Shown here piece after piece: positions 28,943 to 53,230 of a DNA stretch of 55,889 nt. A program made the position numbers and the translations under genes. Every line of letters begins with the position of its first letter. Position 1 is the first letter of the stretch. The notes below the pieces were generated by a model that worked only from the letters and a program-made list of their open reading frames with translations, was not told where the DNA came from and made no database searches. This DNA is from Candidatus Parcubacteria bacterium (lineage in GTDB: Bacteria > Patescibacteriota > Minisyncoccia > Phycocordibacterales > JAACPR01): positions 1-55,889 of the forward strand of contig JBDLUA010000020.1 of assembly GCA_039805545.1 (NCBI GenBank). Direction: 5' to 3'.

Positions 28943-29665
28943 CTACATTTTTCCAAGAAAAACTTTTTCTAAAATTCCAGAATTAATTATCTTTTCAGGA
29001 GTATTCTCAACAACAACTTTTCCCTTATCAAGAACATACGCTCTATCGACTATTTGCAACACCGAATGTAAATTATGTTCTACAATAATAATCGTTGTTT
29101 TTCTTTTTTGATTAATTTCTTTTATTTTTGCAAAAACTTCTTTCACAACCTTTGGAGAAAGACCTAGTGATGGTTCATCAAGCAATAAAACCTTAGGATC
29201 AGTAATAAGTCCTCGCGCAATCGCAACCATTTGTTGTTGCCCTCCTGACAAATGTTTTACTTTTTCTTTTAATTTCTTTTTTAAATCAGGAAATAGTTCA
29301 AGTGTTTCTTCGATTTGTTTTTTTAATAACCCTCTGTTTGAGATGGCATATCCACCCATTTCTAAATTCTCATACACACTTAAGCTTGTGAACAATTGTC
29401 TTCCTTGAGGAACAAACGTAATTCCCCTCTCCACAATTTCATATGGAATTGGTTTAATTTCTTTTTCATGCCACAAAATTTTTCCACCCGAGATAGGAGC
29501 AAGTCCAAACAAGGCCTTCAATATAGTAGACTTCCCGGCACCATTTGGACCCATAAGAGCAACAATTTCTCCTTCATCAAATACAACAGTCGCACCATCA
29601 AGTGCCTTTACACCACCATAGTGAACCTGTATATCTTCAAGTTTGAGGAGTAACTCTTTTTGCAT
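28943..29665 (-). CDS. livF: Liv-type (HAAT) ABC transporter ATP-binding protein LivF-like
   Basis: GPNGAGKST, VPQGRQLF.SLSVYENLEMG, LSGGQQQMVAIARGL and LLDEPSLGLSP motifs. Confidence 0.92.
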   Translation of the reverse strand: MQKELLLKLEDIQVHYGGVKALDGATVVFDEGEIVALMGPNGAGKSTILKALFGLAPISGGKILWHEKEIKPIPYEIVERGITFVPQGRQLFTSLSVYENLEMGGYAISNRGLLKKQIEETLELFPDLKKKLKEKVKHLSGGQQQMVAIARGLITDPKVLLLDEPSLGLSPKVVKEVFAKIKEINQKRKTTIIIVEHNLHSVLQIVDRAYVLDKGKVVVENTPEKIINSGILEKVFLGKM

Positions 29666-29692
29666 GAGTATATGATAACATTATTTATTTTT

Positions 29693-29730
29693 TATAAAAC
29701 AAACCCCGCTTTCGCGGGGTTTGTTTTATA
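29693..29730. terminator. Hairpin terminator after SBP1
   Basis: TATAAAACAAACCCCGC-TTTC-GCGGGGTTTGTTTTATA. Confidence 0.85.
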
Positions 29731-29749
29731 TTTTAATCTTGTCTCTACT

Positions 29750-30835
29750 TTACTTTTGTTCTAAAATTTCTCCGTTTTCAATTTTAGTAATAGCAACATT
29801 AGGAAGTCTTATTCCAACACTATCAAACTTATACAACCCATTTGCACCTTTATATTCAAGTTTTTTCATATTTTCATTCCATTTTTTATTATCTGAATCA
29901 TATGTATTAACTATAATATTAAAGGCATCGTAACCTATATCAGCCAAATATCCTGGATCTTTACTGTATTTTTCTTTATAGAGTCTTTTAAATTCTTCAG
30001 AAGTTGAACTCTTAAGCGTTGCAATTATTGCTCCGTCTAAAACTTTAGTATTACCTAATATTCTTTTATAGTCAGCAAAACCTGTTTGACCACTCGCATC
30101 AAATGCTAATTGTGGTATTTTTAATCCTTGTTTTTTATATTCAGCTATAAATTGTGCTCCCGGTTGTGGAAATGACAACATAACAACAACATCATAATTT
30201 CCTTCTGATGCCTTTAAGGCGTATGTTCTGAAATCTTTTTCATCTGCTCTAATACCCATTTCTGTTACTTCACTACCATAGGCTTTAACTAAAGCATTTT
30301 TGAAACGAATCATGGTGTCATGAACAGTATATACAATCAATGGCTTTTTATAACCTTGTTCTCTCAAATAATTTCCTAGGTTAATTTCAGCTTGAATACT
30401 TCCTGGGAAAAGCCCGTATACAACATCATCAGTAGCATCTTTTGATTGTTCACCCATTTGCAAGATAGGTCTACCGTCTGCTTGAGCTAAATCATAAATA
30501 GCTTCAATACTTGGAGTAGATACATTAAACAATGCATCTACTCGATCAATATCCATCAATTTTTTATAAGCACTCAATGCTTTTTTTGAATCAAAGCCAT
30601 CATCTTCAGCAATAACTTCAATTTGTTTATCTGGATTTTGTTTATTGTAAACCTCTTGTGCAAGAAGAAAACCATTTAACATTTCTTGACCTACAGAGGC
30701 GTATTCACCACTTAAGATAGAGATTGCCCCGATTTTCTTTAGTTCACCTTGGTCATTTGAGTTACTTTGTATGGCAACAAAAATGCCAGCAATCACCAAT
30801 ATAATAATTGATATTCCTATAATTTTCTTTTTCAT
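29750..30835 (-). CDS. LivJ/LivK-like ABC substrate-binding protein SBP1
   Basis: N-terminal TM anchor; KIG.I..LSGEYA, EDDGFD..KALSAYKKL, GYDA and GANG..KFD (periplasmic binding protein type 1). Confidence 0.9.
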   Translation of the reverse strand: MKKKIIGISIIILVIAGIFVAIQSNSNDQGELKKIGAISILSGEYASVGQEMLNGFLLAQEVYNKQNPDKQIEVIAEDDGFDSKKALSAYKKLMDIDRVDALFNVSTPSIEAIYDLAQADGRPILQMGEQSKDATDDVVYGLFPGSIQAEINLGNYLREQGYKKPLIVYTVHDTMIRFKNALVKAYGSEVTEMGIRADEKDFRTYALKASEGNYDVVVMLSFPQPGAQFIAEYKKQGLKIPQLAFDASGQTGFADYKRILGNTKVLDGAIIATLKSSTSEEFKRLYKEKYSKDPGYLADIGYDAFNIIVNTYDSDNKKWNENMKKLEYKGANGLYKFDSVGIRLPNVAITKIENGEILEQK

Positions 30836-30952
30836 TATTTTCACTTTTTACATTATTAATTACCTCACATTAGTATAATGTAAAGATATAAAATAAAGTA
30901 ATTCTTTACTAAATAAGTCAAATTTTATTGATAATAAAGGTTTTTAGAGTAC

Positions 30953-30979
30953 ATTTATGTCAACATTATTGACATAAAT
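30953..30979. promoter_or_regulatory. Putative TrmB1 operator overlapping a -35 box
   Basis: ATTTATGTCAA-CATTA-TTGACATAAAT, perfect 11-bp inverted repeat; TTGACA-16-TATAGT-6-ATG. Confidence 0.65.
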
Positions 30980-31002
30980 ATATAAAATACTATAGTAAAA
31001 GC

Positions 31003-31731
31003 ATGTCGAGATATAAAATAGACCCTTTTTTATTTGATGAAACTGAGAAAATTGTTCTAAAATCACTCAGAATTAATAAAACACCCCTAGAAATTTCAAA
31101 AGATACTAACACTCCCCGTTCAACGGTTTACTTTATTTTAGAAAAACTGAAAAAGCGCGGACTGGTAAAAAAAGAAAAAATAGGTAAAAAAACGTTTTGG
31201 ATTCTAAAAAAATCAAACGAGATAGAGCTGGCAGAGAATCAACCAAGAGAACATTCCAATATAAAAATATACGACTCTTCAGAGCAGATAGTTGATTTTT
31301 TATATCGATTTGTGTCGCAAAATTCCTCTAGATTTCAATTTTTTAATGGCGATCACAATCCACAACACTGGGGAAAATATGTTGAAACAAGAGATGGAGT
31401 AAAATTAAATAATCTAATACGAGATAATGGTTTAATTTCAGATATTATTTCTTCAGCTTCATTTATTAAAAATAATGAAAATGTTCTTGGTAGAGATTGG
31501 ACAAATGCTTTTGTTGATAAACCAACAGAATATCATGTATTAAATTCAAAATATACTAATTTTAATTCTCAAATTATTTTACAAACAAACAAAGTGTTCA
31601 TTATGAATATGGAAAAACCTGTGCTGTATGAAATTTCTGATCCAGACATTTACAATTGTTTTACCTCAATCTTTCAATTTATAAAAGATAATTCTAAAAA
31701 AGTGAATGCTTCTGATTTTTTAAATAATTAA
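31003..31731 (+). CDS. TrmB-family transcriptional regulator TrmB1
   Basis: N-terminal wHTH (EISKDTNTPRSTVYFILEKLKKRGLV) plus C-terminal effector-binding domain; divergent from SBP1. Confidence 0.85.
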   Translation: MSRYKIDPFLFDETEKIVLKSLRINKTPLEISKDTNTPRSTVYFILEKLKKRGLVKKEKIGKKTFWILKKSNEIELAENQPREHSNIKIYDSSEQIVDFLYRFVSQNSSRFQFFNGDHNPQHWGKYVETRDGVKLNNLIRDNGLISDIISSASFIKNNENVLGRDWTNAFVDKPTEYHVLNSKYTNFNSQIILQTNKVFIMNMEKPVLYEISDPDIYNCFTSIFQFIKDNSKKVNASDFLNN

Positions 31732-31759: not shown

Positions 31760-31779
31760 TTAACAAGAAACTATTCTTA

Positions 31780-32868
31780 TTAATTCTCACTCTTCACAAA
31801 CTTTCCGTCTTTAAATACTTTTGCTTCACTTTCAAGAATTCTTGATCCTGTTTTGTCGAAAAGTATTTTTCCTGACATTCCAGAATATGAGAAGTCTTTG
31901 TTTTCAAGAATCTTTTTCCAATCTTTTTTGTCTTTACCAGCAAGATTTTTTGAGATAATTTGAATCGAATCATATCCATATACTGCAAGGAAGTTTGGCT
32001 CTGCTTTATATAATTCCTTATATTTTGCATTGTATGCATCGCTTGTAGTATTCGCAATCATAGTTGAGATACAGTTATTAAACACGGTATCATCTTGCAC
32101 CTTATCGAGATAATCTCCGATTGTAAGTTCAATGTTTCCATCACAAATCAATTGAATGTTTTTATTTCCTTTTTGCTTTGCAACTTCATTCAAGAATTTT
32201 GAACCTTGTTCAAGTGGAAGAAATAATGTGTATGAATCAAAGTTTCCAGCTAACATCTTTGCGACTTCCGTTCGTACATCAGAATTTGATGCAACAGGAA
32301 TTTCACTATAAGCACCACCAGCAATGCCTTCGATAAATTGTTCCTTATTAGTTTGAGCGATTGACCAATCAGATGAATATACGAGAGCTGTATTTTCATA
32401 TTTTTTATCAACTTGCTCACCTAATGTTTTAAACAACGCTGCTGCCCAAGGAATAATTTCAAACACATTATCGTTTTCAATTGAGGCTTCATTACCCACT
32501 GTAAGCAATAATTCATTTGATTGATTCACAACAGGTTTAAGTGCTTCAAGAGAAGGACTTGAGAGACCTACTACGATATCTACATTATCAACTGTTTGAA
32601 GTTTATTGTATGCAGACAAAGCTTTTTTAGAATCAAATCCATCATCTTCAAACACAAGTTCAATATTTTTATGCTCTAAATCTTGAACACTCATCTCCAT
32701 TGCTTTTTTAACACTTTCCCCAAATGCCGCACCATATTCTCCAGACAAAGGAAGAATAACCCCTACTTTTACCACATCTGATGAAGTATCTTTTTTAGAA
32801 TTTGAAACTCCCCAAACGACAGCAAGCACGATCACAATACCTATCACAATTTTTATACCTTTATTCAT
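31780..32868 (-). CDS. LivJ/LivK-like substrate-binding protein SBP2
   Basis: KVGVILPLSGEY, FEDDGFDSKKALSAYNKL, YGYDS and GMSGKILFD motifs. Confidence 0.9.
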   Translation of the reverse strand: MNKGIKIVIGIVIVLAVVWGVSNSKKDTSSDVVKVGVILPLSGEYGAAFGESVKKAMEMSVQDLEHKNIELVFEDDGFDSKKALSAYNKLQTVDNVDIVVGLSSPSLEALKPVVNQSNELLLTVGNEASIENDNVFEIIPWAAALFKTLGEQVDKKYENTALVYSSDWSIAQTNKEQFIEGIAGGAYSEIPVASNSDVRTEVAKMLAGNFDSYTLFLPLEQGSKFLNEVAKQKGNKNIQLICDGNIELTIGDYLDKVQDDTVFNNCISTMIANTTSDAYNAKYKELYKAEPNFLAVYGYDSIQIISKNLAGKDKKDWKKILENKDFSYSGMSGKILFDKTGSRILESEAKVFKDGKFVKSEN

Positions 32869-33038: not shown

Positions 33039-33863
33039 ATGAAAATTAAGCCAGAAACCCTCAAAATACTCGGAATATCTCGTGTTGAGCTTCAAATCCT
33101 CAATTCCCTCGATTCCAAAGATTTAACTATTCTTGATATTTCAAAACAGACATCAATACCAAGAACTTCCCTCTATTACACCCTTTCCCTATTACAAGAA
33201 AGAGGTTTTATTTCTAAATATAAATTACACAAGAAGATTTTGTGGAAAAAAACTGAAGATTCCAAAATAAAAGAACTACTTCAAGAAGCGACAGTAAACT
33301 TTACACAAAGTCAGGTCAACACAACAACTCAAACAGTTGATACAACTACAAGTATTACTTTTTATCGTGGTGTTTCTGATATGATTTCTTTCTTTAATGA
33401 ACTTGTACAAACACCGAAAGAATCTCGTTGGTATGGAATACAACCTGGACCTTCTGTAATAGATTTACTTTCAAAAGCAAATGTTCAAAATATTATTGAT
33501 TTTAATCATCAAGTTAAAAATAAAAAACATATTGTTGAAGGAGTTGTACACGAGGGGTATATCGAGATTATGGCAAATATTCTCGCACCTAAAGAGTATA
33601 AGGATCTTCTCAAAAGTTTTGGCGGTCGTTCTGCTGATTATGCAAAGCTTCCCGAAAATTATATGAAAGATATTTCTTCAGAAATTTACCTATTTGATAA
33701 CACAAAAATTGCGCTTTTAAACTGGAATAAAGAATTTGCAATCATTATTCGAAATAAAGACATGTATGATCTGCTTTTTGAAATGTTCAAATCAACCAAA
33801 TACATGCTCAACAAATATGATCAGAACGAAAAGATCGCGAAAAAGTTAGTGGAGCTAGGATAA
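33039..33863 (+). CDS. TrmB-family transcriptional regulator TrmB2
   Basis: LKILGIS..E, DISKQTSIPRTSLYYTL..L.ERGFI; FYRG; SEIYLF...KIALLNW. Confidence 0.87.
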   Translation: MKIKPETLKILGISRVELQILNSLDSKDLTILDISKQTSIPRTSLYYTLSLLQERGFISKYKLHKKILWKKTEDSKIKELLQEATVNFTQSQVNTTTQTVDTTTSITFYRGVSDMISFFNELVQTPKESRWYGIQPGPSVIDLLSKANVQNIIDFNHQVKNKKHIVEGVVHEGYIEIMANILAPKEYKDLLKSFGGRSADYAKLPENYMKDISSEIYLFDNTKIALLNWNKEFAIIIRNKDMYDLLFEMFKSTKYMLNKYDQNEKIAKKLVELG

Positions 33864-33867: not shown

Positions 33868-34602
33868 CTACTCCCCCAAATACGCCTCGACAACATCTCT
33901 TCTCGACAACACATCTTCTGGTTTTCCTTCTGCAAGAAGCTCTCCCGCATCAAGCACCACAACATAATCACAGAGATCTCGAATGATTTCCATGTTGTGC
34001 TCAACCAATACAATTGCTTTTCCCTCTTCTTTTAATTGTTTAATGATATGTGATACTTTTTTGATCATCTCAGGAAAGAGTCCTGCATATGGTTCATCAA
34101 ACAAAATAACATCAACATCCATCGCAATAGCACGACCAATTTCAAGAAGCTTTCTTTGTCCATATGATAAGTTGAGTGCGAGCTCATTCTTCTTTGTTTC
34201 AAGTCCAACTATCTTTAGAATTTCTTCTGCTCGTACTTCATATATAACTTTATTTCTTTCAAAAAGAGATCCCCATACCCCACGATGTGTAAGTGTGAGA
34301 AGGATATTTTCAAATACACTCATTTGTTCAAACACTCTTACATTTTGAAATGTTCGAGTAATACCAAAGGTTCGAATATCAAAAGGTTTTATTTTATCTA
34401 TCTTTACCTTGTCGTCAATAATCAAAACACCTTTATCTTTAGGAACAATTCCAGTTACCAAATTAATAAGCGTAGATTTTCCAGAACCATTAGGACCAAT
34501 GAGTCCTGTTATCTTGTGTTTTTCAATAGAAAACCCTGCTCCATTAACGGCTTTTATTCCTGTGAATTTTTTATGAAAATCTTTTATGGTCAAAAGTGAC
34601 AT
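33868..34602 (-). CDS. livG: Liv-type ABC transporter ATP-binding protein LivG-like
   Basis: GLIGPNGSGKST, GITRTFQ, LSYGQRKLLEIGRA, DEPYAG, VEHNM and V.EAYLG motifs. Confidence 0.92.
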   Translation of the reverse strand: MSLLTIKDFHKKFTGIKAVNGAGFSIEKHKITGLIGPNGSGKSTLINLVTGIVPKDKGVLIIDDKVKIDKIKPFDIRTFGITRTFQNVRVFEQMSVFENILLTLTHRGVWGSLFERNKVIYEVRAEEILKIVGLETKKNELALNLSYGQRKLLEIGRAIAMDVDVILFDEPYAGLFPEMIKKVSHIIKQLKEEGKAIVLVEHNMEIIRDLCDYVVVLDAGELLAEGKPEDVLSRRDVVEAYLGE

Positions 34603-34625
34603 GGATATAGTATATCAAATATATA

Positions 34626-35447
34626 TTAGGGCATAAGAACATTCTCAATAACCCTATTGTGATCAATTTTCTTTCCGCCCATTTTTACAAACTCAAACAT
34701 GTCTGTTAAGAATTTTGTAATGTTTTGATTAGTTATTTCAATCGCAACATCTTCTTTCCAATTAATAATAAGAGCAGTATTTTGAAAAATCCATATTTCA
34801 CTATCACAATTAAAAAATGTGTCTGCAAATACAGTGTAGTCAGCCATTCGTCCCCTTAAACTCTCAACTGTTTGTTTATGTTTTTGAGGATTTTGTAAAA
34901 TCTCTTTTTTATAAGACTCATAGGCGCTCTCGTTAAGCATACCATCGAGAATAATTTTATTTTTTATAATTGCTCTGTTAAATTCAACTAATTGTTCTGG
35001 TGTTATTTTTTCATTAAGTTCTAGCCAAGACCGATGGTGTTGTATAGCTCTAATACGAGTATTTCTATTTTTTGATGCAATTCTTTGATATGCGGGAAGT
35101 ATTTCTTTTGGACCAACATGGATGATAAATTCATTCTCATATGAAGTCTTAACTCGTGCACCTTTAATATGAGAATCTTTTAATTTAAACTCATCAACCG
35201 CCCGCTGTATTAGTGTTGAAAATTCGTCCTCAGTAACTGCAATATATACATATCGCTTTCCGTTTTTAATTCTTTTAACAAAGCCTTTCTTTTGAAGTTT
35301 ATTGAGTTCATATAAGACACCTGTTCGAGAAATACCCGTATACCCAACAATCTCAGGAACTGTTTTTGCTTCAAAAAGAGCCTCGAGAATCTTTCTTTCA
35401 GTAGTTCTTAATCCGAGTATTCTTAGTAATTCTTCACTTAATTTCAT
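34626..35447 (-). CDS. TrmB-family transcriptional regulator TrmB3
   Basis: LRILGL..TE, TGISRTGVLYELNKLQKKGFV; resembles TrmB2 (GR.ADY, SEI..F, INW); divergent from SBP3. Confidence 0.87.
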   Translation of the reverse strand: MKLSEELLRILGLRTTERKILEALFEAKTVPEIVGYTGISRTGVLYELNKLQKKGFVKRIKNGKRYVYIAVTEDEFSTLIQRAVDEFKLKDSHIKGARVKTSYENEFIIHVGPKEILPAYQRIASKNRNTRIRAIQHHRSWLELNEKITPEQLVEFNRAIIKNKIILDGMLNESAYESYKKEILQNPQKHKQTVESLRGRMADYTVFADTFFNCDSEIWIFQNTALIINWKEDVAIEITNQNITKFLTDMFEFVKMGGKKIDHNRVIENVLMP

Positions 35448-35616: not shown

Positions 35617-36720
35617 ATGAATAATAAGTTCAAAATTATCAGTGGTATCGCAATACTTGTATTAGTTATTGCACTACTCATTGGAAACAATACACACAAA
35701 AACAATGAAGTTATACGGATTGGAGTTATTGCTCCCCTCTCAGGTGACTTCGGTGCAGTTGGAGAAAACTTTGTAAACGGAATCAAAACAGCAGAAGCTG
35801 TCTATGAAGAAGAAACCGGAAAACAAGTTGAAATCATTATTGAAAATGATGGTGGAGAAGCAACAAAAGGTCTTAGTGCCTTCAAAAAACTTACAGAAGT
35901 AGATAAGGTAGATGGTTTGATAAATACATTCACAAGCACAATGGATGCAATCTACGAACCTTCAAAAAATCTTCCTTATCCTGTTATGATGGGATTCCTT
36001 CAAGCAAATAATGTTGCAGATGATCATGTGTTTCAAATTACTCTTGGAAACGAGAATGTATGGGACAGATACGCAGAATACCTTATGAAAGCAAACTTTG
36101 ATAAGAGTAACCTCGTAATCGTACATTCAAAAGATGCGGCACAAGATTCTTTTGCAAAAGAATTTGCAAAACACTATCAAGGAAAAACAGAAGTGATTGT
36201 AGCATCATCAGAAAAAGGAATACTTAAAGCAGATGCAGCAAAGATTGCAGAGCTTAAGCCAAGTGCAGTTATATTCTTTATGACACCAGAGAACGGAGCG
36301 ATTCTTACAAAAGAATTACTTCCTCTTATCGAAAAAGATACACAACTTATCTATGATATTCAAATCCACACAGGAATGACATATTACAAAGATATACTTG
36401 GAGATCTAAATAAGATTAATGGAGCAATCAGTATTATTCCAGAAGGAGAACCAAATCAAGACTTTATCAAAAACTACAAAGAAGTTATTGGAAAAGACCC
36501 AGGATTTACTTCAGACTTTGGATACGATGCAATGATGACATATCTTGAATCAAAAGACACTTCAAAGGATGGCTGGATTAAAAATCTCAAGAAGACTGAC
36601 TTTGCAGGTGCAAGTGGCCAAATCAAATTTGATCACAATGGAATCGTCTTCCCCAACCTCACAATTAAAGTTGTAGAGAATGGTGAGATGAAAGTTGCAG
36701 AGCGACTTCCGCTTAAATAA
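35617..36720 (+). CDS. LivJ/LivK-like substrate-binding protein SBP3
   Basis: RIGVIAPLSGDF, IENDGGE..KGLSAFKKL, FGYDA and GASGQIKFD motifs. Confidence 0.9.
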   Translation: MNNKFKIISGIAILVLVIALLIGNNTHKNNEVIRIGVIAPLSGDFGAVGENFVNGIKTAEAVYEEETGKQVEIIIENDGGEATKGLSAFKKLTEVDKVDGLINTFTSTMDAIYEPSKNLPYPVMMGFLQANNVADDHVFQITLGNENVWDRYAEYLMKANFDKSNLVIVHSKDAAQDSFAKEFAKHYQGKTEVIVASSEKGILKADAAKIAELKPSAVIFFMTPENGAILTKELLPLIEKDTQLIYDIQIHTGMTYYKDILGDLNKINGAISIIPEGEPNQDFIKNYKEVIGKDPGFTSDFGYDAMMTYLESKDTSKDGWIKNLKKTDFAGASGQIKFDHNGIVFPNLTIKVVENGEMKVAERLPLK

Positions 36721-38043: not shown

Positions 38044-38080
38044 AACCGTCTAACCCAAGCATTGCTTGAATTAGACGGTT
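38044..38080 (-). terminator. Terminator of the small membrane protein gene
   Basis: AACCGTCTAA-CC-CAAGCA-T-TGCTTG-AA-TTAGACGGTT with a U-tract on the minus strand. Confidence 0.75.
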
Positions 38081-38098
38081 GAAATTTCTGGCAGGTTT

Positions 38099-38392
38099 TC
38101 AGAAAAATGGCTCAGCATCTCTTTCACTGGCAGTGAGAGATATCATAAGAACAAACAACCCTGAAATCATAAGGAGCAAGGAAACAACCACAAATGCAGC
38201 ACCTAGGAAGCCGATAACAACTCCCGAATTAATGTGCCACAAATACAGTGCTGAGGAAAATAATCCCCAGGAAACGGCTATCATTACAAAAGCAAGAGCA
38301 AATGTCTTGAGTCGTCCATACCCTTTATCAAAGATAAGGCACCTTGCAAGAATGATTATCACAACAGCGATCGGAAAAATCAGAATGTTCAT
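38099..38392 (-). CDS. Small hydrophobic membrane protein (3 TM)
   Basis: 97 aa, almost entirely hydrophobic; has its own promoter and terminator. Confidence 0.7.
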   Translation of the reverse strand: MNILIFPIAVVIIILARCLIFDKGYGRLKTFALAFVMIAVSWGLFSSALYLWHINSGVVIGFLGAAFVVVSLLLMISGLFVLMISLTASERDAEPFF

Positions 38393-38558
38393 TTTGGTAA
38401 TTTTTTGGATTTGTGCTGACGAAAGCGGATTGTTTTCGTTACAGCAGGAAATTTATATACTAAATGGTATAATGAACTTTCCGCTATAACGAAACTTTTA
38501 GAGCTGATTTTTAAAGAACTTGCTTTTATTCTTAAATTGTAGCATAATATATTAAAAA

Positions 38559-41377: not shown

Positions 41378-41413
41378 TAATCAAAAAACCGCCCCCGGGC
41401 GGTTTTTTGATTA
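41378..41413. terminator. Bidirectional terminator (array family)
   Basis: TAATCAAAAAACCGCC-CCCG-GGCGGTTTTTTGATTA. Confidence 0.85.
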
Positions 41414-42292: not shown

Positions 42293-42299
42293 ATTGTTT

Positions 42300-43187: not shown

Positions 43188-43195
43188 CTTAATGC

Positions 43196-45227: not shown

Positions 45228-45269
45228 AGACAATCAAAAAACCGCCAGAAGGCGGTCTTTTGATTGTCT
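45228..45269. terminator. Terminator after SBP7 (array family)
   Basis: AGACAATCAAAAAACCGCC-AGAA-GGCGGTCTTTTGATTGTCT. Confidence 0.85.
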
Positions 45270-45287: not shown

Positions 45288-46382
45288 TTAATCAATATCT
45301 ATAGCAACTTTCTCTCCATTTTTTACCATAAAGTAATTATTCTTTAGATCAAATACTCGATCCCCCCCATAATTACTTCCTTCAATTACACTTTTATTTT
45401 GAGTGTTATTTGAAACATGTTTAATTTGACATGAAACATCGTTACCACAAGCTACCACGGCTTGCACCATATATGTAAGAAGATCATATGAAAGTGCTGC
45501 AGGCCTTACATTAATATTGTTTCCATATTTAGATTTTATCCTGTCTTTAAATTCTGTAGGTACATTAAAGTCAAATAATATGCTTCCTTCTAGAGAACTT
45601 AAAGGATATTTTTCTTTAATTTTCTCGCTGTAACAATCACTTTCCACGCAAACAAGAGACACGCCTGAATTAGTTTCAATATTTTGTTTGATAATGGCCT
45701 CATAATTTGCTTCGTATCCGTATGAAATTACCATATCAACACCATTTTGTTTTAATTTTAATAGAGATGCCCGGAAATCAGTTTCAGCAGGACTTGCAGC
45801 CGCTTCAACAAACACATTCTCTTTTCCAAAAACCTCAGTCATTTGAGCGACACATGCATCCGTAAATGACAATTTAACTCCAAGATACGCAATCTTTGTA
45901 AGTCCTAGTTTATTTTTTGCATATTCTGATGCAACCTTACATTCATATGTAGAATCAAAAAATGTTTTGATCGAATAAGGGTTTGCTTCAACAATTGCAG
46001 AATCAAAAGATGAATAACCGTATAGAATTTTTGCATCTTTTGCCACAGGAGAAACAGCACTTGATGGTCCTGAGAAGTCAGTAAACAATGCATCTACTTT
46101 ATTAATATTTATTAATTTTTGTGCAGCACTTACCGCTTTATCTGGCTTCCCTTCAGAATCCTCAAATAAAACCTCGACATCAATTCCTTGTTCTTTAAGA
46201 TCAGCAACAGCAAGTTCCATTCCTGCCTTTGAAGGTTCACCCCAAAAAACTGCGAATCCTGAAAGTGCCTCTATCGATCCAATTTTTATATGATCAGTTT
46301 TCTTTACTTCAGTAAAATAAACAGAGACACCAATAATAATTAAAACAAGAAGAACAATCCAAATTTTTAAACTTTTTTTCAT
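45288..46382 (-). CDS. LivJ/LivK-like substrate-binding protein SBP7
   Basis: KIGSIEALSG, FEDSEGKPDKAVSAAQKLI, DFRASLLKLK and SYD motifs. Confidence 0.9.
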   Translation of the reverse strand: MKKSLKIWIVLLVLIIIGVSVYFTEVKKTDHIKIGSIEALSGFAVFWGEPSKAGMELAVADLKEQGIDVEVLFEDSEGKPDKAVSAAQKLININKVDALFTDFSGPSSAVSPVAKDAKILYGYSSFDSAIVEANPYSIKTFFDSTYECKVASEYAKNKLGLTKIAYLGVKLSFTDACVAQMTEVFGKENVFVEAAASPAETDFRASLLKLKQNGVDMVISYGYEANYEAIIKQNIETNSGVSLVCVESDCYSEKIKEKYPLSSLEGSILFDFNVPTEFKDRIKSKYGNNINVRPAALSYDLLTYMVQAVVACGNDVSCQIKHVSNNTQNKSVIEGSNYGGDRVFDLKNNYFMVKNGEKVAIDID

Positions 46383-46536
46383 AATAATGAATTATTTTTA
46401 TAACTCATATATTATATAATCTATTTCTTATTTGTCACAAAAATAGCCCTTGTTTATGAATAAATACTTTATGACCTTATGTAGTAAAGGTTTTTTATAT
46501 ATTTACTGTTGTCCATTTTTATGACAGTATATAAAT

Positions 46537-47283
46537 ATGTCAAAATTAGAAGCAAATCTAAAACTATTTGGTCTAAAAGAAGGCGAAATAACAACATATC
46601 TCTTTCTCCTATCAAACCGAGATCTTCCCGCATACAAAATAGCAACAGGAACAAACATTCCAAGAACTACAGTATACAAACATCTGGAATCCTTAGAAAA
46701 ACAAGGCCTTGTGTCCAAATGGTCAAAAAATTCTGTTAAACATTTTTCTGCAGAAAATCCAAAACGCCTTGAACAGCTTTTGAATTTTAAAAAAGAAGCC
46801 TTAAACAACATACTTCCGGAATTAACGAGTAAATTTAATAACGAATCTATTTACCCTACAGCAAAACTCTATACAGGTAAAGAAGGAGTGAAGTACGCGT
46901 TTGAGCATATCTTAGAAACAATTATAAAAGAAAAACTTAAACTAGTTTATGCAATATCAGAAAAAAAGCTGACCGAAACACTTCCAAAGTTTTTTTTGGA
47001 TTGGAGAGAAAGAAAGAATAAAAAAACAGGAGCATTTACATACATGATAGTTTCAGAAGGAACTGCATCACATCAGCACTATAAAAGTGATCCCTTTAGA
47101 GAAACACGAGAAATGCCACAGAAAAATTTGCTCGAAGGTTCTTTAAACATAATTGGAAACAACGTTTATTTTTTCTCCTTTAAAGAAGAGGGGAATGAAA
47201 TATACTCGCTTGTAATAGAATCACCCATCGTGGCATCCATGATGACAAAATTATTTTTATACATTTGGAAAACATTAGAATAA
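46537..47283 (+). CDS. TrmB-family transcriptional regulator TrmB6
   Basis: LKLFGLKEGEITTYL.LL, TNIPRTTVYKHLESLEKQGLV, AENP and YTGKEGV motifs. Confidence 0.9.
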   Translation: MSKLEANLKLFGLKEGEITTYLFLLSNRDLPAYKIATGTNIPRTTVYKHLESLEKQGLVSKWSKNSVKHFSAENPKRLEQLLNFKKEALNNILPELTSKFNNESIYPTAKLYTGKEGVKYAFEHILETIIKEKLKLVYAISEKKLTETLPKFFLDWRERKNKKTGAFTYMIVSEGTASHQHYKSDPFRETREMPQKNLLEGSLNIIGNNVYFFSFKEEGNEIYSLVIESPIVASMMTKLFLYIWKTLE

Positions 47284-47335: not shown

Positions 47336-48442
47336 CTATTTAATAGTTACTGGTTTCCCATCTTTTATTTCTCTCACCACAGCACCAGATACTAATTGTC
47401 CGTCAGAATCGAATTTTAGATTTTTCCCAACTGCACCATCAAAACTTTTTATGTTTTTAATAGCATCTTTGATTTGATCATGTGTAGGAACAGTTTTTCC
47501 GTCCCCTATACTTTCAATAGCTTTAACAACAAGGTTTACACCATCATATGCATGTGCAGAACCAAATTTTGGAGATTCATTATATTTTTTAGTATACGCG
47601 TCGACATACCACTCTTGTGGATCTGCAGCATTTATATACCAAGATCCTTCAAACAAACCGATTTCATTTGCAAATTCGAATGTTTCAATACTTGTTACGG
47701 GAGTTGTAATACCTGCTTCTCTAATTTGCTTATATAGAGTTTCAAGTTCAGGACTTGAAGATTGTAGAACAAGTATATCTGCTGGTTTGTCTTTAACTTC
47801 ACTAATCAAAGTTCTAAAGTCTCGAGTTCCAGACTTAAATTTTTGAGTTGCAAGAACATTTACTTCTGGATTATTAGGTAGTTCTTTTTCAAATGCCTGA
47901 GCAATTGCTGCTGCACCAGGATTATCTGAAATCTCAAAAAATACTAAGTTCTTAATATTTCTCTTTTTTAATTCCTTCATAAACAATTGAACATCCATAT
48001 ATGGAGGAGTATAGTGGAGAAAGTTATATTCACCATTAGCAACCTTTGTATCAGATGCAAAAAAGTTTAAATGAGGAACTTTTTGAGCTTCTGCAATTGG
48101 ATTTACGACATTTCCTACAGGAGAACCAAATGAGAAAAGCATGTCAACTTTATCTACATTAATGAGTTTATTTGCTACAGTTGCACCCACTTGAGTTTTA
48201 AATTGGTCATCTTCAAATACAACTTGGTAATTGTATTTTGTATCCCCAAGATTCTCCAGAGCGAGTTCTATTGCCTTTTTACTACTTTGTCCGAGCAGTG
48301 CGACATCTCCGGTGAGGGGTAATGTTACACCGATTTTAACTGTAGGTTTTTCGGTATTATTTGTTTTTGTAGAATTAAAAACAAAGAAGACCGCCACTGC
48401 AAGTAAGATAATCACCAGGATACTTACTATTTTCTTATTCAT
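47336..48442 (-). CDS. LivJ/LivK-like substrate-binding protein SBP8
   Basis: KIGVTLPLTGDVA, FEDDQF, DFRTLI and HAYDGV motifs. Confidence 0.92.
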   Translation of the reverse strand: MNKKIVSILVIILLAVAVFFVFNSTKTNNTEKPTVKIGVTLPLTGDVALLGQSSKKAIELALENLGDTKYNYQVVFEDDQFKTQVGATVANKLINVDKVDMLFSFGSPVGNVVNPIAEAQKVPHLNFFASDTKVANGEYNFLHYTPPYMDVQLFMKELKKRNIKNLVFFEISDNPGAAAIAQAFEKELPNNPEVNVLATQKFKSGTRDFRTLISEVKDKPADILVLQSSSPELETLYKQIREAGITTPVTSIETFEFANEIGLFEGSWYINAADPQEWYVDAYTKKYNESPKFGSAHAYDGVNLVVKAIESIGDGKTVPTHDQIKDAIKNIKSFDGAVGKNLKFDSDGQLVSGAVVREIKDGKPVTIK

Positions 48443-48637
48443 AACTTATTTTATTGCTTGTTACTTTAAATAATATATGCATTCACAGAATAACTATACC
48501 ACACATTTTATATTTGTATTTTATTGATAACAGATATTTTGTTAATTATTTATATTTTACAATGCAATTTTGCTATATATAAAATTTTGTTCGTAAAAAT
48601 TGACAAGTTTATACATAAGAATTATGCTAAATTAAGC

Positions 48638-49441
48638 ATGCAAACCAACCAAATACAGAAGCAATTGAATAAATCTGGTCTAAACGAAAAAGAGGCTCTT
48701 ATTTATACAACCCTTATCGAACTTGGAGGAGCCTTCCCTTCAAAAATTGCGGAGATAACCAAAATAAACCGAAGTACCGTATATAAGATACTCCTAGATC
48801 TTTCTATAAAAGGACTTGTAAACGAAGTAGAAAAATCAAAGAAGTTATTCTATCAAATAGAAAATCCAAAAAAATTAACACGCTATCTAAAAGATAAAGT
48901 AACAACGGCACAAGACAATCTAGAAAATGCCCAAAGAATTATTCCTGAGATAGAAGGACTACTTGCAATGTTTGCAGACAAGCCTAAAGTATCTTTTTTT
49001 GAAGGCCACGAACAGGTAATGAGCATCTACGAGGACCATCTTAATGTTACAAAACCATATGAGATGGTTGCATGGGCTAACACAACATATTTACAAGACC
49101 TCCTTAAATTAGACTTTTTTCTTTATTATAGAAAAACAAAAGAAAAAATTGGAATAACAACAAGAGGAATTGTTCCTGACACAGAATTTGATCAAGAATT
49201 TGTAAACATTGCATATAAGAATATCAGTATAAAAGAAAAATTTTGGCCCATAATGAAATACATTCCTTATACTGAATTTTCTTTCAAAGGCGAGATTACA
49301 ATTTATGGAGAAGATAAAGTTTCAATCGTAAACTTAAATAAAAACCATTTCACCGGAACAATTATTCAAGACAAAACTATTCACGATATGATGAAAATGA
49401 TTTTTGAATTGAGTTGGAAGGGTGCGGATTTTTATAAATAA
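48638..49441 (+). CDS. TrmB-family transcriptional regulator TrmB7
   Basis: GLNEKEALIYTTLIELG, KINRSTVYKIL..L..KGLV, KPKVSFFEG, EITIYGEDKVSI and MKMIFELSW motifs; start moved to ATG 48638. Confidence 0.9.
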   Translation: MQTNQIQKQLNKSGLNEKEALIYTTLIELGGAFPSKIAEITKINRSTVYKILLDLSIKGLVNEVEKSKKLFYQIENPKKLTRYLKDKVTTAQDNLENAQRIIPEIEGLLAMFADKPKVSFFEGHEQVMSIYEDHLNVTKPYEMVAWANTTYLQDLLKLDFFLYYRKTKEKIGITTRGIVPDTEFDQEFVNIAYKNISIKEKFWPIMKYIPYTEFSFKGEITIYGEDKVSIVNLNKNHFTGTIIQDKTIHDMMKMIFELSWKGADFYK

Positions 49442-49487: not shown

Positions 49488-50612
49488 TTACTTCACACTC
49501 TTAATCAACTCCATCACCCCATTATGTATCTGATAGATATTAATTGGAGTATCTTTTGCTGCGTGTTTATCTGTAAATGATGTTGTACCGTTTACTGTTT
49601 TAAAGCTTTTGTTTCCAATGTATTTTGGAATATCTTCAGGAGTTTTTGAATGAGCAATTGCTTCTGCAAGAATATAAACAGCATCGTAACTTTTATTTGC
49701 ACCTCGTCGTGGTTTTTCTCCATACTTATTTTCAAATCTCTTTGAAAATTCATCAGATGGAACTTCCCAATCAATCATGATTGTTCCTTCTAATTTACTT
49801 TTATCAACTTCAGGATTATTAAACACGTCTCGCATTGTAGTATACGCAATAAATTGTGGTTTGAATTTTAATTCTTCTGCAACAGTTAGATATTTAACAA
49901 TGTCAAAATCTAACATATCAAGAAACACTGCCTCTGGTTTTTTATCTGCAAGCTTTAGAATGTTTGTTCGAAAATCACTCGAACCAATCGCTGCGTATGT
50001 TTCAACTGTAAATTGTCCTTTGTCTTTCATAATTTGTGAAAGAGTATGTTCAATTGATTCACCAAATCCAGATTGAAAACGAATCATTGCAAGATTTTTT
50101 ATACTTTTATCTTGAATAACAGAATCAAATTCAGAAATTACTTGTTCAAATCGAGGATACATTACAAAAGTATACTCATTCATTTCAAAAGTATTATCTA
50201 TTTGGAAATTAACCGGAGAGATAAATACTTTTTTGTCTTTTTGTGCAAGAGAAAACAATGGTTGTGCAGTAAAATCAAAGATTCCACCAATAACACCATC
50301 AACATCATTAATTCCTACAAGCTTTTGATATGCAGATACAGACCCTTGTGGAGTTGTTTGATCATCTTCAATATACAGTTCAACTTTTCTTCCTTCTATT
50401 CCACCATTTGCGTTAATCTCCTCAACCGCAAGTTCCATGGCTTTTTTGGACATATCACCAAAGTCTGCAGCAACTCCTGTAAGTGAGATATCTACACCTA
50501 TTTTTATAGGATTAGTATTTTCTTGTGTATTTTTTGAAAACAAAGCAAAAATAACCCCTAAAACAATGATAATTACTAAAACTGAATATATTTTCTTTTT
50601 CATAATGGACAT
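49488..50612 (-). CDS. LivJ/LivK-like substrate-binding protein SBP9
   Basis: KIGVDISLTG, AVEEINANGGIEGRKVELYIEDD, DFRTNILK and SYDAV motifs; start may be 50603. Confidence 0.92.
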   Translation of the reverse strand: MSIMKKKIYSVLVIIIVLGVIFALFSKNTQENTNPIKIGVDISLTGVAADFGDMSKKAMELAVEEINANGGIEGRKVELYIEDDQTTPQGSVSAYQKLVGINDVDGVIGGIFDFTAQPLFSLAQKDKKVFISPVNFQIDNTFEMNEYTFVMYPRFEQVISEFDSVIQDKSIKNLAMIRFQSGFGESIEHTLSQIMKDKGQFTVETYAAIGSSDFRTNILKLADKKPEAVFLDMLDFDIVKYLTVAEELKFKPQFIAYTTMRDVFNNPEVDKSKLEGTIMIDWEVPSDEFSKRFENKYGEKPRRGANKSYDAVYILAEAIAHSKTPEDIPKYIGNKSFKTVNGTTSFTDKHAAKDTPINIYQIHNGVMELIKSVK

Positions 50613-50644: not shown

Positions 50645-50660
50645 TTCGGCGAATTCCGAA
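50645..50660. promoter_or_regulatory. Putative TrmB8 operator
   Basis: TTCGG-CGAATT-CCGAA, the only GC-rich palindrome in the short AT-rich divergent spacer. Confidence 0.45.
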
Positions 50661-50674
50661 TAATATTGAAAAAT

Positions 50675-51439
50675 ATGGACAAAACAGCAAATATATTTAA
50701 ATCGCTTCAAATAAAACCCAATGCCCAGAAGGTTTTAGACTATTTAATTAGTCACGGGACTTCCCCCGTAAAAGATATTGCTTTTGCATTAAAACTCCCA
50801 AAATCAACAATTTATGACGCTCTAGATGAACTTATTTCTCAAAGTCTTATTGTTGAATATACAGAAGACAGAGGAAGAGTATTTGGAATTGCAGATAAAG
50901 AACAACTCATTAGGATTAGTGAACAAAAAATTGCAGAATTAAAAGAAAATCAAAAAAAGCTTCTTGAATATATTAATGATTCAAAAAAAGAAGATTCTAT
51001 CTCTAAACCAAAGATAAAATTTTATTTTGGCAATGAAGGAATCAAACAAGCATTCAGAGACACAATGTGGAACGAGCGCTGCAAAGAAACATATCTTATG
51101 TGGTCAACAAAAGAAATGCTTGAGATACTTGGTCCAGAATTTAGTGAATGGCACAGCTCAATGCGATTACGTTATCAGATTACTCTTAATGTAATACGGA
51201 AAATTCAAGACAAACAACTTGATTCAACTGAAGGATTAAAAGAAGGCTGGAATAGTTATCGAGAAATTAGGCATGCACCAAAAAATTTAGATTGGAGCAT
51301 GAGTTACTGGATATATGATAATAAAGTTTTATTTTCAAGTGGAGGAAAGGACAGATTTGCTTTTATTGTGCACAGTAAAGAATTTGTAGACCTAATGATT
51401 TTACTTTGGAAACAGGTTTGGGAAATTAGTGAAGAATAA
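50675..51439 (+). CDS. TrmB-family transcriptional regulator TrmB8
   Basis: DIAFALKLPKSTIYDALDEL, KPKIKFYFGNEGI, WIYDNKV and LWKQVW motifs. Confidence 0.88.
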   Translation: MDKTANIFKSLQIKPNAQKVLDYLISHGTSPVKDIAFALKLPKSTIYDALDELISQSLIVEYTEDRGRVFGIADKEQLIRISEQKIAELKENQKKLLEYINDSKKEDSISKPKIKFYFGNEGIKQAFRDTMWNERCKETYLMWSTKEMLEILGPEFSEWHSSMRLRYQITLNVIRKIQDKQLDSTEGLKEGWNSYREIRHAPKNLDWSMSYWIYDNKVLFSSGGKDRFAFIVHSKEFVDLMILLWKQVWEISEE

Positions 51440-51474
51440 AAAAGGCGCGGCCGAAGGCCACACCTTTTTTATTC
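51434..51474. terminator. Bidirectional terminator between TrmB8 and livM
   Basis: GAATAAAAAAGGCGCGGCC-GAA-GGCCACACCTTTTTTATTC (G-U pairs on the minus strand). Confidence 0.8.
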
Positions 51475-52353
51475 CTATAACTTATACTCCCCCATAAACC
51501 CCTGAGGCCGATACATCATGAGCCCAACAAGAATAAGTCCGTATACAACTTGTCTCATTTGAGCGGCGATATCTGTTGGGAATCCAACAAATCTAAGAAC
51601 TTCAGGCAATAAGATTAGAAATACAGTTCCCCATACCACCCCCTTATTACTTGCGAGTCCTCCAAGAATAATAATTGCCAAAATAAATATTGATTCTCCT
51701 AATGCAAAAGAAGAAGGATCAATAAATGTGATGTAACTTGCAAATAGTGCTCCTGCAAACGAAGCCATTCCTGCGCTTATTGAAAAAATAAGTGTTTTAT
51801 ATTTTTTAGTATCATATCCAAAAACCTGAATTACCTGTTCGTTTTCTCGAATTGCTTTAATAACTCTTCCGAATGAAGATGAAACTATGTATTGAGAAAT
51901 TTGATAGATAATAAATGAAAAAACTAAACATAAAATAAGGAAAGAGGTGTTTGATCTAAAAATATAATCAAATGAGCCCAGGTGTATTGCAGGCCTATCT
52001 ATTCCAGAGATTCCAAGTGGTCCTCTTGTAAGTTCTTGCCAATTAAGAAAAATACTGAAAACAATTATATTTAAACCAAATGATGCAAGTGCATAATAAT
52101 CACCTTTAAATCTCCCCATAATAAGCCCAAAAACAAGAGAATTTATTACCGTAATGATGCACCCTACAATCATGGCAAAAAAGAAATTTACATCATACCG
52201 TGTAATTAAAATTGCATTTGTGTATGCACCAATTCCAAAAAAAGCAGCATGTGTAATTGAGAGAAGCCCCGTATACCCAACAGCAAGATTCAAACTAATA
52301 CTTAATATAGACCAAATCGAGATAAGTATTGCAAGGTGTATGAGATATTCCAT
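51475..52353 (-). CDS. livM: Liv-type ABC transporter permease LivM-like
   Basis: LNLAVGYTGLLSITHAAFFGIGAY, GDYYALAS, LTRGPLG, SSFGRVIKAIREN and LPEVLR motifs. Confidence 0.92.
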   Translation of the reverse strand: MEYLIHLAILISIWSILSISLNLAVGYTGLLSITHAAFFGIGAYTNAILITRYDVNFFFAMIVGCIITVINSLVFGLIMGRFKGDYYALASFGLNIIVFSIFLNWQELTRGPLGISGIDRPAIHLGSFDYIFRSNTSFLILCLVFSFIIYQISQYIVSSSFGRVIKAIRENEQVIQVFGYDTKKYKTLIFSISAGMASFAGALFASYITFIDPSSFALGESIFILAIIILGGLASNKGVVWGTVFLILLPEVLRFVGFPTDIAAQMRQVVYGLILVGLMMYRPQGFMGEYKL

Positions 52354-52357
52354 ATAT

Positions 52358-53230
52358 TTATTTTACCTTTAAAATTCCACCTGGTCTAAATATTAAAAAG
52401 AGGATTAATACTCCAAACGCAATCGCATCTTTCCATTCTCCTGATATTTTCCAGATTCCAAAATTCTCAATAAATGCAAGAAAGAATGCTCCGAGAACAC
52501 CACCATATACATTACCAATTCCGCCTATTATTGAAGCAATTGTACCTTTAAGAAGAAGTCCCATACCCATAGTTGGTTCAATGCCTGTATCAAACCCAAT
52601 TGCAATACCAGCAACCCCTGCAATTATAGAACCAATAAAAAATACTCGTGCAATTATCTTTTTTGTATTAATACCAACAATCTCCGCAACTTGTTCATCA
52701 TCAGAAATTGCCTTTATTGCTTTACCGAATTTTGTAAATTTCATTAGATATGCAAGAACAAGCATTATCCCTATTGCGACAATGAGTATGTATACTTGAA
52801 CTTGTGTCATTACTCCTCCAAAAACTTCGTATACTTTAGTTGTTGAACTACTTGATGTAAGTGTCTGAAACTGACTGGTAAATATGATTGCAACAATTGC
52901 TTGTAATGCAGTAAGTAGTCCGAGCGAAGCAATTAAGAGTATCATTCCTGAAGAACCGTTTTTTCGTATTGGTGCATATACAAATTTTTCACAAAGCCAA
53001 CCAACAAACCCTGAGAATACAAGAGCAATTAAAATCGAAAGAAAAATATTTACATCATGTTCTTTTGCAAGAAAAAAAACTACGTATCCGCCAATAGTCG
53101 CAATAACCCCGTGAGATAAGTTAAAAAACTTAGTTACACCAAATATAAGATTAAAACCAAGGGCAATTAGTGAATAAAGTGAACCAGCAATAATACTATT
53201 TATAACAATCTGAGGAATTATTGAATCCAT
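52358..53230 (-). CDS. livH: Liv-type ABC transporter permease LivH-like
   Basis: GSLYSLIALGFNLIFG...FNLSHG, TKFGKAIKA, IIGGIG and FRPGG motifs. Confidence 0.92.
   Translation of the reverse strand: MDSIIPQIVINSIIAGSLYSLIALGFNLIFGVTKFFNLSHGVIATIGGYVVFFLAKEHDVNIFLSILIALVFSGFVGWLCEKFVYAPIRKNGSSGMILLIASLGLLTALQAIVAIIFTSQFQTLTSSSSTTKVYEVFGGVMTQVQVYILIVAIGIMLVLAYLMKFTKFGKAIKAISDDEQVAEIVGINTKKIIARVFFIGSIIAGVAGIAIGFDTGIEPTMGMGLLLKGTIASIIGGIGNVYGGVLGAFFLAFIENFGIWKISGEWKDAIAFGVLILFLIFRPGGILKVK

Follow-up and report, generated by a model that had tools for sequence, protein, structure and literature searches.

In the LivJ/LivK-LivHMGF system of Escherichia coli, as in other importers of the HAAT family, several substrate-binding proteins (SBPs) share one permease, and the Liv system is under global control of the Lrp type. 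OppA1-5 of Borrelia burgdorferi share one OppBCDF permease, each oppA gene having its own promoter. Here we describe a locus in which nine SBP genes, eight of them head-to-head with the gene of a TrmB-like regulator, are arrayed with the genes of a single amino-acid-type ABC transporter of the HAAT family. The array occupies positions 28943-53230 of a 55,889-bp stretch of DNA from Candidatus Parcubacteria bacterium (the window, meaning the whole stretch that was analysed, which is contig C20 of its genome). The host is an ultra-small freshwater bacterium of the Paceibacteria type (Patescibacteria, or candidate phyla radiation, CPR), its genome is 99.7% complete with 682,907 bp in 27 contigs, and homologues of the window proteins carry the source labels Paceibacterota, Pacebacteria or Patescibacteria.

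The array shares with the E. coli Liv system the transporter family and the use of more than one SBP per permease, but it has nine SBPs per permease pair (20 in a related genome, G018) that are 16-31% identical, its core transporter genes are scattered among the modules, and eight of the nine SBPs have regulators of their own. It is like the Borrelia case in that a reduced genome appears to widen its uptake through separately regulated SBP genes for one permease, whereas the Borrelia proteins belong to the peptide/Opp ATP-binding cassette (ABC) family and have neither dedicated adjacent regulators nor an island organisation.

For the regulators the closest described systems are archaeal. In Thermococcus litoralis and Pyrococcus furiosus TrmB, a winged helix-turn-helix (wHTH) protein encoded beside a binding-protein-dependent importer, represses the trehalose/maltose (TM) ABC transporter genes, with the transported sugars as inducers; TrmB and TrmBL1 bear an extra C-terminal domain that binds effector sugars, while TrmBL2 has no such subdomain and is a single protein, abundant and highly conserved, that binds DNA in a largely unspecific way, as far as the accessible part of the source describes them (PMC4877046). 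The array regulators resemble TrmB in their position beside an importer and in having a homologous wHTH and dimerisation helix. Unlike TrmB they are bacterial, measure 242-274 amino acids (aa), have no sugar-binding subdomain and are paired with HAAT (Peripla_BP_6) rather than sugar SBPs, and each of the eight paralogues would control one SBP gene instead of a whole operon. With TrmBL2 of the Thermococcales (PDB 5bpi, 5box, 5bpd) they share domain order and length, the best structural match and a full-length profile match, but the diverged paralogues of the array are many, and each has its own partner gene and candidate operators that would be specific to it.

We consider it likely that the array is a mobile uptake island, in which one HAAT importer is served by nine receptors and eight of the SBP genes are each under their own autoregulated TrmB-like repressor, insulated by terminators. 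This reading is built on direct observations of gene content and arrangement, a single permease, the island nature of the array, its recurrence, partial co-inheritance of the partners, conserved spacer repeats and a TrmBL2-type fold. The individual parts are already known, as are several SBPs sharing one permease; new, as far as our searches reach, is that short bacterial TrmB-like regulators are matched one-to-one with HAAT SBPs, that this occurs on such a scale in 0.7-Mb genomes and that the arrangement behaves as an island. In the openly searchable literature, with subscription journals and supplements outside the coverage, we found no paper joining TrmB with Patescibacteria, and the combination of TrmB, branched-chain amino acid, SBP and ABC transporter yielded only unrelated papers; the accessible part of PMC12455944 holds nothing relevant on the SBP/TrmB design. 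The first-pass annotation of this DNA knew of no description of the architecture; the design itself is not unique, being shared by G018, a second relative (G021) and distant Patescibacteria.

Gene content and arrangement of the array

Each open reading frame (ORF) of at least 80 aa between 28.9 and 53.3 kb was scanned with Pfam, where an SBP is a Peripla_BP_6 (PF13458) protein, a TrmB-like regulator carries the PF01978 wHTH and a permease matches PF02653 (BPD_transp_2). The scan returned nine SBPs (E from 2e-22 to 2e-52, each exceeding the PF13458 cut-off), eight TrmB-like regulators (7/8 above the PF01978 cut-off in the window scan, 8/8 in the genome scan), two HAAT permease genes and two ABC ATPase genes. 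No further SBP, TrmB-like (above cut-off) or HAAT permease gene was found outside the array in a scan of the whole 682,907-bp genome. The first-pass annotation had counted nine SBPs, eight TrmB proteins, one each of LivH, LivM, LivG and LivF, and eight head-to-head pairs, all of which agree with the Pfam and genome scans and with the gene coordinates; two genes resembling 5-aminolevulinate dehydratase (ALAD), a methyltransferase gene and a 97-aa ORF, all inside the array, were absent from it. The features are as follows.

~28897-53317, no strand: island, the whole array with its outer untranslated regions; 24.4 kb, 3.6% of the genome
28943-29665, minus: ABC ATPase, LivF/UrtE-like (ATPase_F); PF00005 E 7e-34; NCBIfam UrtE and LivF models below cut-off
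29750-30844, minus: SBP1; PF13458 E 1.7e-30; N-terminal hydrophobic anchor, no Cys
31003-31731, plus: TrmB-like 1; PF01978 E 1.4e-8
31780-32868, minus: SBP2; PF13458 E 4.5e-27
33039-33863, plus: TrmB-like 2; PF01978 E 6.8e-6
33868-34602, minus: ABC ATPase, LivG/UrtD-like (ATPase_G); PF00005 and PF12399 BCA_ABC_TP_C (LivG-type tail)
34626-35447, minus: TrmB-like 3; PF01978 E 1e-6
35617-36720, plus: SBP3; PF13458 E 2.4e-22
36790-37917, minus: SBP4; PF13458 E 2.2e-52
38099-38392, minus: 97-aa hydrophobic ORF; no Pfam or NCBIfam match
38590-39345, plus: TrmB-like 4; PF01978 E 4.7e-10
39390-40526, minus: SBP5; PF13458 E 1.2e-47
40612-41361, plus: TrmB-like 5; PF01978 E 2.9e-13
41411-42343, minus: ALAD-like a; PF00490 E 1.3e-75; below the HemB equivalog cut-off
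42300-43187, minus: LCM-family methyltransferase; PF04072 E 7.9e-6
43196-44083, minus: ALAD-like b; PF00490 E 2.9e-70
44086-45192, minus: SBP6; PF13458 E 5.4e-41
45288-46382, minus: SBP7; PF13458 E 7e-33
46537-47283, plus: TrmB-like 6; PF01978 E 6e-14
47336-48442, minus: SBP8; PF13458 E 1.1e-47
48524-49441, plus: TrmB-like 7; PF01978 E 9.7e-14, domain from residue 48
49488-50612, minus: SBP9; PF13458 E 1.3e-44; nearest solved structures LivJ-type
50666-51439, plus: TrmB-like 8; PF01978 24.4 bits (window scan), 27 bits (genome scan)
51475-52353, minus: HAAT permease, LivM/UrtC-like (PermM); PF02653 E 4e-44
52358-53230, minus: HAAT permease, LivH/UrtB-like (PermH); PF02653 E 5.5e-43

From the left, ATPase_F (-) is followed by the pairs SBP1(-)/TrmB1(+) and SBP2(-)/TrmB2(+), by ATPase_G (-) and TrmB3(-)/SBP3(+), and by SBP4(-)/TrmB4(+) and SBP5(-)/TrmB5(+). 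The right part begins with ALAD_a, the methyltransferase, ALAD_b, SBP6 and SBP7 (all -), the last of these divergent from TrmB6(+), and continues with SBP8(-)/TrmB7(+), SBP9(-)/TrmB8(+), PermM(-) and PermH(-). The spacers of the eight divergent pairs measure 53-170 bp except for one of 672 bp, and SBP6 is the sole array SBP without its own regulator; a hairpin (45241-45256) separates it from SBP7, and its best match in G018 sits between that genome's two ATPase genes. Seven of the eight convergent junctions fold into bidirectional terminator hairpins of the A-run/GC-stem/T-run type (-18.6 to -34.2 kcal/mol) and the eighth is only 4 bp long, in agreement with the first-pass statement that such terminators close most modules. 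For TrmB-like 7 the true start is likely at 48635, and a promoter-like site (48600-48628) lies just 5' of this alternative start.

The transporter core is dispersed over the array, a point on which the first-pass annotation is silent: ATPase_F stands at the left end and both permeases at the right end, while ATPase_G lies behind TrmB3 and forms an operon with it. As ATPase_G starts 23 bp downstream of TrmB3 on the same strand, a regulator and part of the core probably share a transcript. A hairpin separates ATPase_F from SBP1, which precedes it (28943-30844, minus), and ATPase_G is embedded in the TrmB3 module (33868-35447, minus); expression of the transporter core may therefore depend on particular modules.

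Two PF02653 permeases, two PF00005 ATPases, one of them with PF12399, and nine PF13458 SBPs make up a HAAT importer, and only one permease pair is present in the genome, in line with the shared permease of the first-pass annotation and as is also the case in G018 and G021. All nine SBPs presumably differ in specificity, and we infer that they share this single permease. Each of the nine starts with a basic and then a hydrophobic segment that holds no cysteine, hence no lipobox Cys, so that the segment may be a signal-anchor and the SBPs membrane-anchored. The NCBIfam LivJ/K subfamily model scored 42-84 bits against a cut-off of 477 and the urea (UrtA) models at most 54 bits against about 493, and SBP3 had no match among the NCBIfam SBP models. 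Naming the ligands by nearest solved structures was also tried: these differ between paralogues but are distant (E 1e-12 to 1e-16), and none could be named.

The SBP7-SBP6 transcription unit includes the cassette of ALAD_a, methyltransferase and ALAD_b (41411-44083, minus). With 68% identity between them, the two ALAD-like proteins belong to a short subfamily (~295 aa) in which both lysines aligned with those of E. coli HemB that we take to form the Schiff bases are kept in 120/120 top homologues, and the three Cys of HemB, presumably metal-binding, are replaced by G, S and S, a motif that is likewise found in 120/120. They score 253 and 233 bits with the NCBIfam HemB equivalog, below its cut-off of 297, and no match to HemC (PF01379), the tetrapyrrole-pathway companion that was looked for, occurs in the genome. 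The subfamily gene is present in just 2 of 401 genomes sampled from the phylum, and its homologues have Patescibacteria and Pacearchaeota among their labels. The methyltransferase and ALAD pair recurs in two metagenome contigs (L038:943-3513 and L039:837-2610), with a TrmB-like gene directly after it in L038; the openly searchable literature gave no paper linking porphobilinogen synthase with CPR or DPANN. Because one operon carries enzymes, the cassette suggests uptake for metabolism, at least one module feeding the metabolism of some compound. A link to 5-aminolevulinate-like substrates is speculation.

Between SBP4 and TrmB4, the 97-aa ORF (38099-38392, minus) has three hydrophobic stretches, a promoter-like site of its own (38564-38536) and a terminator (38080-38044). 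No homologue was found in any of the fetched relative loci, and a 22-nt direct repeat is common to the promoter regions of this ORF and of SBP4. A 136-aa ORF on the opposite strand (38079-38489, plus), which has no Pfam match, was set aside in favour of the minus-strand ORF with its promoter-like site and terminator. Elsewhere in the window, a ComEC-like competence protein, RecJ, phosphoglycerate kinase and a TraG/VirB4-like P-loop ATPase are encoded upstream (4193-17053), and three large ORFs (10834-12615, 19079-21235 and 21306-24386) have no Pfam match at E <= 1e-5. The window contains no tRNA and no Rfam family at gathering score.

Recurrence in relatives and island behaviour

A PF13458 match was found in 5 of 41 related genomes, the source genome included, and such an SBP is present in 23 of the 401 genomes of the wider phylum sample. 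G018 (~0.7 Mb) and G021 come from other genera of the same family, and their loci were typed with hidden Markov models made from the window's own proteins. G018 has 20 SBPs and 14 TrmB-like genes (13 paired), G021 has 10 SBPs and eight TrmB-like genes (6 paired); exactly two PF02653 permease genes are present in either genome, and in both the HAAT core genes always accompany the SBP sets. The three genomes together hold 27 divergent TrmB/SBP pairs, which account for 27 of 30 TrmB-like genes and 27 of 39 SBPs. In G018 (loci L001-L010) the pairs occur on three contigs and well away from the permease genes, an arrangement more extreme than that of the window, and on its contig 3 orthologues of SBP5/TrmB5, SBP8/TrmB7, SBP9/TrmB8, TrmB6, TrmB3, the permeases, the ATPases and SBP6 appear in a different order. 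Both module number and module order, which the first-pass annotation had proposed to compare, thus differ between relatives. Three further genomes have SBPs with a divergent TrmB-like neighbour (5/5 in G115, 2/5 in G332 and 2/7 in G335). Of 11 bacterial loci with a TrmB6 orthologue, ten have an SBP partner in divergent orientation and at least 7 contain more than one module, although one of the 11 (L027) appears to be the G018 contig itself and is not independent.

UvrD and ComM, which flank the array, are 26 kb apart here and 1.3-2.5 kb apart in six congeners, and lie on separate contigs in the seventh. When the flanks were aligned by blastn, G002 joined window position 28896 to 53318 with 41 bp between, and G007 joined 28876 to 53760 with 4 bp between. 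Because of these two clean joins we regard the array as a discrete insertion relative to the congeners. The island has a GC content of 32.3% compared with 35.3% for the genome and sits between an M23-peptidase gene and a mazF-like gene; no Peripla_BP_6 gene was found in the 7/7 congeners searched. The search for att sites gave no direct or inverted repeat longer than 6 nt linking both junctions, and general Pfam scans gave no integrase among the island ORFs. Overall, the array is an accessory island that is probably horizontally exchanged. A recent transfer from the G018/G021 lineage was considered and set aside: the core transporter proteins are 64-74% identical and UvrD 51-52%, but protein classes evolve at different rates, so this gap cannot tell transfer from vertical descent with loss.

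The site between the M23-peptidase gene and comM (window 53231-53761, L017-L022) is itself variable, being empty in G007 and G006, occupied by the mazF-like gene in G002 and here, and filled with other short ORFs in three more congeners (G003, G004 and G005). Upstream of mazF, a GC-rich element at about 53325-53365 has conserved counterparts in G002 and G004.

Co-inheritance of the partners, regulator architecture and spacers

Maximum-likelihood trees were built, in quick and careful versions, for the 27 paired SBPs and the 27 paired regulators of the three genomes. The SBP and TrmB trees have 7 of 24 bipartitions in common, where 2000 within-genome shuffles of the partners gave a mean of 0.29 and a maximum of 4. 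The patristic distances correlate with a Spearman rho of 0.33 (Mantel), a value reached by 6 of 5000 shuffles, and with the window's eight pairs taken by themselves, 788 of 40,320 permutations attained the observed rho of 0.54. SBP1/2/3 and TrmB1/2/3 fall in an identical seven-member clade in both trees, and the careful trees return the same clades as the quick ones. However, the sister of TrmB6 is the regulator of G018 module 10 (100/99), whereas that of its partner SBP7 is the SBP of G018 module 2 (100/99), and an approximately unbiased test rejects the grouping of TrmB6 with the module-2 regulator (p 1.3e-5), with the caveat that this group was named after the tree was seen. The TrmB6 orthologues are 48-59% identical over the 11 loci, and their partner SBPs, with only about 25-35% identity to SBP7, fall into three clades (SBP7 in six loci, a separate deep clade in four and the SBP8 clade in one). 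As the trees are significantly yet incompletely congruent, we conclude that the modules are long-lived but re-assortable, although linkage alone could explain the congruence. The co-phylogeny of partners anticipated in the first-pass annotation was therefore borne out as a significant tendency and not as a strict rule. The same annotation had named absent co-evolution of the partners and a fixed module content as outcomes that would speak against it, and neither was observed.

The TrmB-like paralogues are 12-28% identical to one another, and their recognition helices and wings differ; together with the SBP identities this confirms the earlier description of the paralogues as highly diverged. 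An AlphaFold2 model of TrmB6 (43 sequences, mean pLDDT 91.3) predicts that residues 1-75 form a wHTH and residues 76-103 a long helix, after which comes a single alpha/beta domain. The best Foldseek matches of the model were TrmBL2 chains (255-272 columns, E 1.7e-13, identity 15-17%), followed by TrmB (3qph) and by the TrmB effector domain 2f5t over 150 columns, and a sequence profile searched against the PDB matched TrmBL2 over residues 10-247 and TrmB over only residues 4-139. TrmB6, the one regulator examined in this respect, accordingly has the dimerisation helix and, behind it, an alpha/beta domain whose homologous counterpart in TrmB is the first subdomain of the effector domain, and PF11495 had no match in the array regulators at E <= 0.01. 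The array regulators thus belong to the TrmB family by their DNA-binding half and are without the only part of the family for which, in the accessible part of the source, ligand binding is documented.

Several observations concern what the remaining C-domain could do. The C-domain holds 18 of the 23 positions that are specific to TrmB6 (conserved in at least 94% of 35 orthologues, with no more than 1 of 7 paralogues sharing them), a constraint that, judged from the alignment, favours a specific function of this domain. Other CPR and DPANN lineages commonly have this two-domain architecture as well, which is a lead only but likewise favours such a function. Congeners without SBPs carry 0-6 TrmB-like genes, so the regulator family appears to be general, with SBP genes as one class of partner. 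One TrmB-like gene of G021 without an SBP (L015:1874-4287) lies head-to-head with a 200-aa ORF of no assigned family, followed by a class IV aminotransferase gene.

The spacers contain inverted repeats that are candidate operators. TGTC-N9-GACA occurs twice in the 55.9-kb window, where 0.46 copies are expected, each time just upstream of a TrmB gene: the copy that overlaps a promoter-like -35 hexamer (30958-30974) lies 29-45 nt upstream of TrmB1, and the other (46510-46526) lies 11-27 nt upstream of TrmB6 and is kept in 10 of 11 spacers of the TrmB6 orthogroup. In its relaxed form, TGTC-N7-11-GACA, 5 of 18 occurrences in 218 kb fall inside 5.4 kb of spacers, all adjoining the regulator start. 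The SBP9/TrmB8 spacer has a different, GC-rich palindrome, TTCGGCGAATTCCGAA (TTCGG...CCGAA), conserved in three genomes. An operator common to all modules was sought and not found, the relaxed repeat being present in 5 of 27 spacers only.

How the modules may work

In the mobile uptake island that we favour, nine membrane-anchored SBPs, presumably of different specificity, would feed the single LivH/M-like permease and its LivG/F-like ATPases. Each TrmB-like dimer would bind the inverted repeat in its own spacer and repress its own gene together with the adjacent SBP gene, and the bidirectional terminators would insulate the module from its neighbours. The signal would most likely be a small molecule bound by the C-domain, either the imported substrate or its product. 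Each SBP would then be expressed solely when its substrate is present, which could save cost in a cell of roughly 700 genes. Within this scheme repression, effector binding, ligand identity and the sharing of the permease by nine SBPs are what we infer from the observations above; that the effector is the transported substrate is plausible by analogy with TrmB, though we would put it somewhat below an even chance, since it is weakened by the missing sugar-binding subdomain and by the partner swaps.

A number of points weigh against the scheme. Pairing is not strict, with at least one supported partner swap (TrmB6/SBP7 compared with G018), and the array regulators are without the subdomain that binds sugar in TrmB. 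No homologue of their remaining C-domain is reported as ligand-binding in the literature covered, and the nearest structure, TrmBL2, is described in the accessible part of the source as an abundant chromatin protein and not as a ligand-controlled repressor (PMC4877046). None of the nine SBPs reaches any NCBIfam equivalog cut-off. The TGTC/GACA repeat is confined to 5 of the 27 spacers, the other candidate operators rest on two or three sequences, and promoter-like sites are not more frequent than in shuffled sequences (72 compared with 57 +/- 8, and 50 compared with 54 +/- 7).

The first-pass annotation proposed more, namely that each module is an autonomous import-and-sense channel whose TrmB-like protein binds the ligand of its SBP, the whole forming a receptor repertoire for host, nutrient or kin signals. 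We hold this stronger version only tentatively and think it rather unlikely as it stands. It can appeal to the precedent of TrmB, whose inducers are the transported sugars in the part of the source that we cite (PMC4877046), to the largely shared inheritance of the partners, to a C-domain conserved within an orthogroup and divergent between paralogues, and to a module content that varies among relatives. The single permease, the old co-inherited modules and the orthogroup-specific spacer repeats fit autonomous channels well, but the effector-binding subdomain of TrmB is missing, so 'TrmB senses ligand' is an analogy only, and an orthogroup of regulators 48-59% identical is paired with SBPs from three clades at about 25-35%, in addition to the supported swap. 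As to host or kin signals, no result favours them over nutrients: the enzyme cassette in one operon points to metabolism and not signalling, and the island is absent from the 7/7 congeners searched. The opposite view, that the TrmB-like proteins do not sense at all and are TrmBL2-like silencers or architectural proteins, constitutive or globally controlled, which keep the expression of an acquired AT-rich island low, the one-to-one pairing being a by-product of gene-pair duplication, would account for the nearest structure and domain architecture, for the lower GC content of the island and, through linkage alone, for the co-phylogeny. We consider it improbable, as TrmBL2 is single and highly conserved whereas here eight deeply diverged paralogues (12-28% identity) are each maintained beside an SBP, with recognition helices and wings that differ, different conserved inverted repeats in different orthogroups, and members of the same regulator family, unpaired with SBPs, in congeners that have no island.

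It is very unlikely, in our view, that some or all of the SBPs are non-transport proteins such as surface receptors, adhesins or partners of signalling proteins. Their nine hydrophobic anchors without a lipobox Cys and the ratio of SBPs to permease pairs (9:1 here and 20:1 in G018) could be read in this way, and SBPs that feed signalling proteins are known from the accessible part of PMC8050422; yet the array ORFs include no sensor kinase, chemoreceptor or cyclase gene in Pfam scans, and the HAAT core always accompanies the SBP sets in G018 and G021. That foreign DNA was joined into the contig by assembly or binning we regard as having a negligible chance. The slightly lower GC content and the absence of the array from the congeners searched would fit such an artefact, but both flanks lie on one contig in the order and orientation seen in six congeners, the junctions are clean and at a site that varies among congeners, and 99-100% of the sampled words are present in two sequencing runs of a single sample, although these runs are possibly the source of the assembly and so not independent.

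CPR bacteria are thought to have few transporters and regulators, whereas this bacterium devotes 3.6% of a 683-kb genome to one importer, nine receptors and eight regulators, and this whole set behaves as an island that is gained or lost. As a wider and still tentative idea, which we think has perhaps one chance in a few of being right, the short TrmB-like proteins of Patescibacteria and DPANN could form a large class of one-component sensors with a single, small-molecule-binding C-domain, and SBP/TrmB pairs could be exchangeable cassettes that bring further substrate specificities, each with a switch responding to its substrate, to one HAAT permease. Islands of 8 to 14 or more cassettes would then move between lineages and set which environmental or host-derived metabolites can be used, one cassette feeding an ALAD-like/methyltransferase pair that, without its metal site, may make or break down a pyrrole-type or aminoketone compound outside the tetrapyrrole pathway. 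Both the short TrmB-like family and the ALAD-like/methyltransferase cassette are uncharacterised. If the regulators respond to transported compounds, each module would be a ready-made combination of an SBP and a repressor/operator pair for the discovery of these compounds in vitro. The nutritional ecology of uncultivated Patescibacteria would then become directly accessible to experiment, and orthogonal sensor and operator parts would be a further yield.

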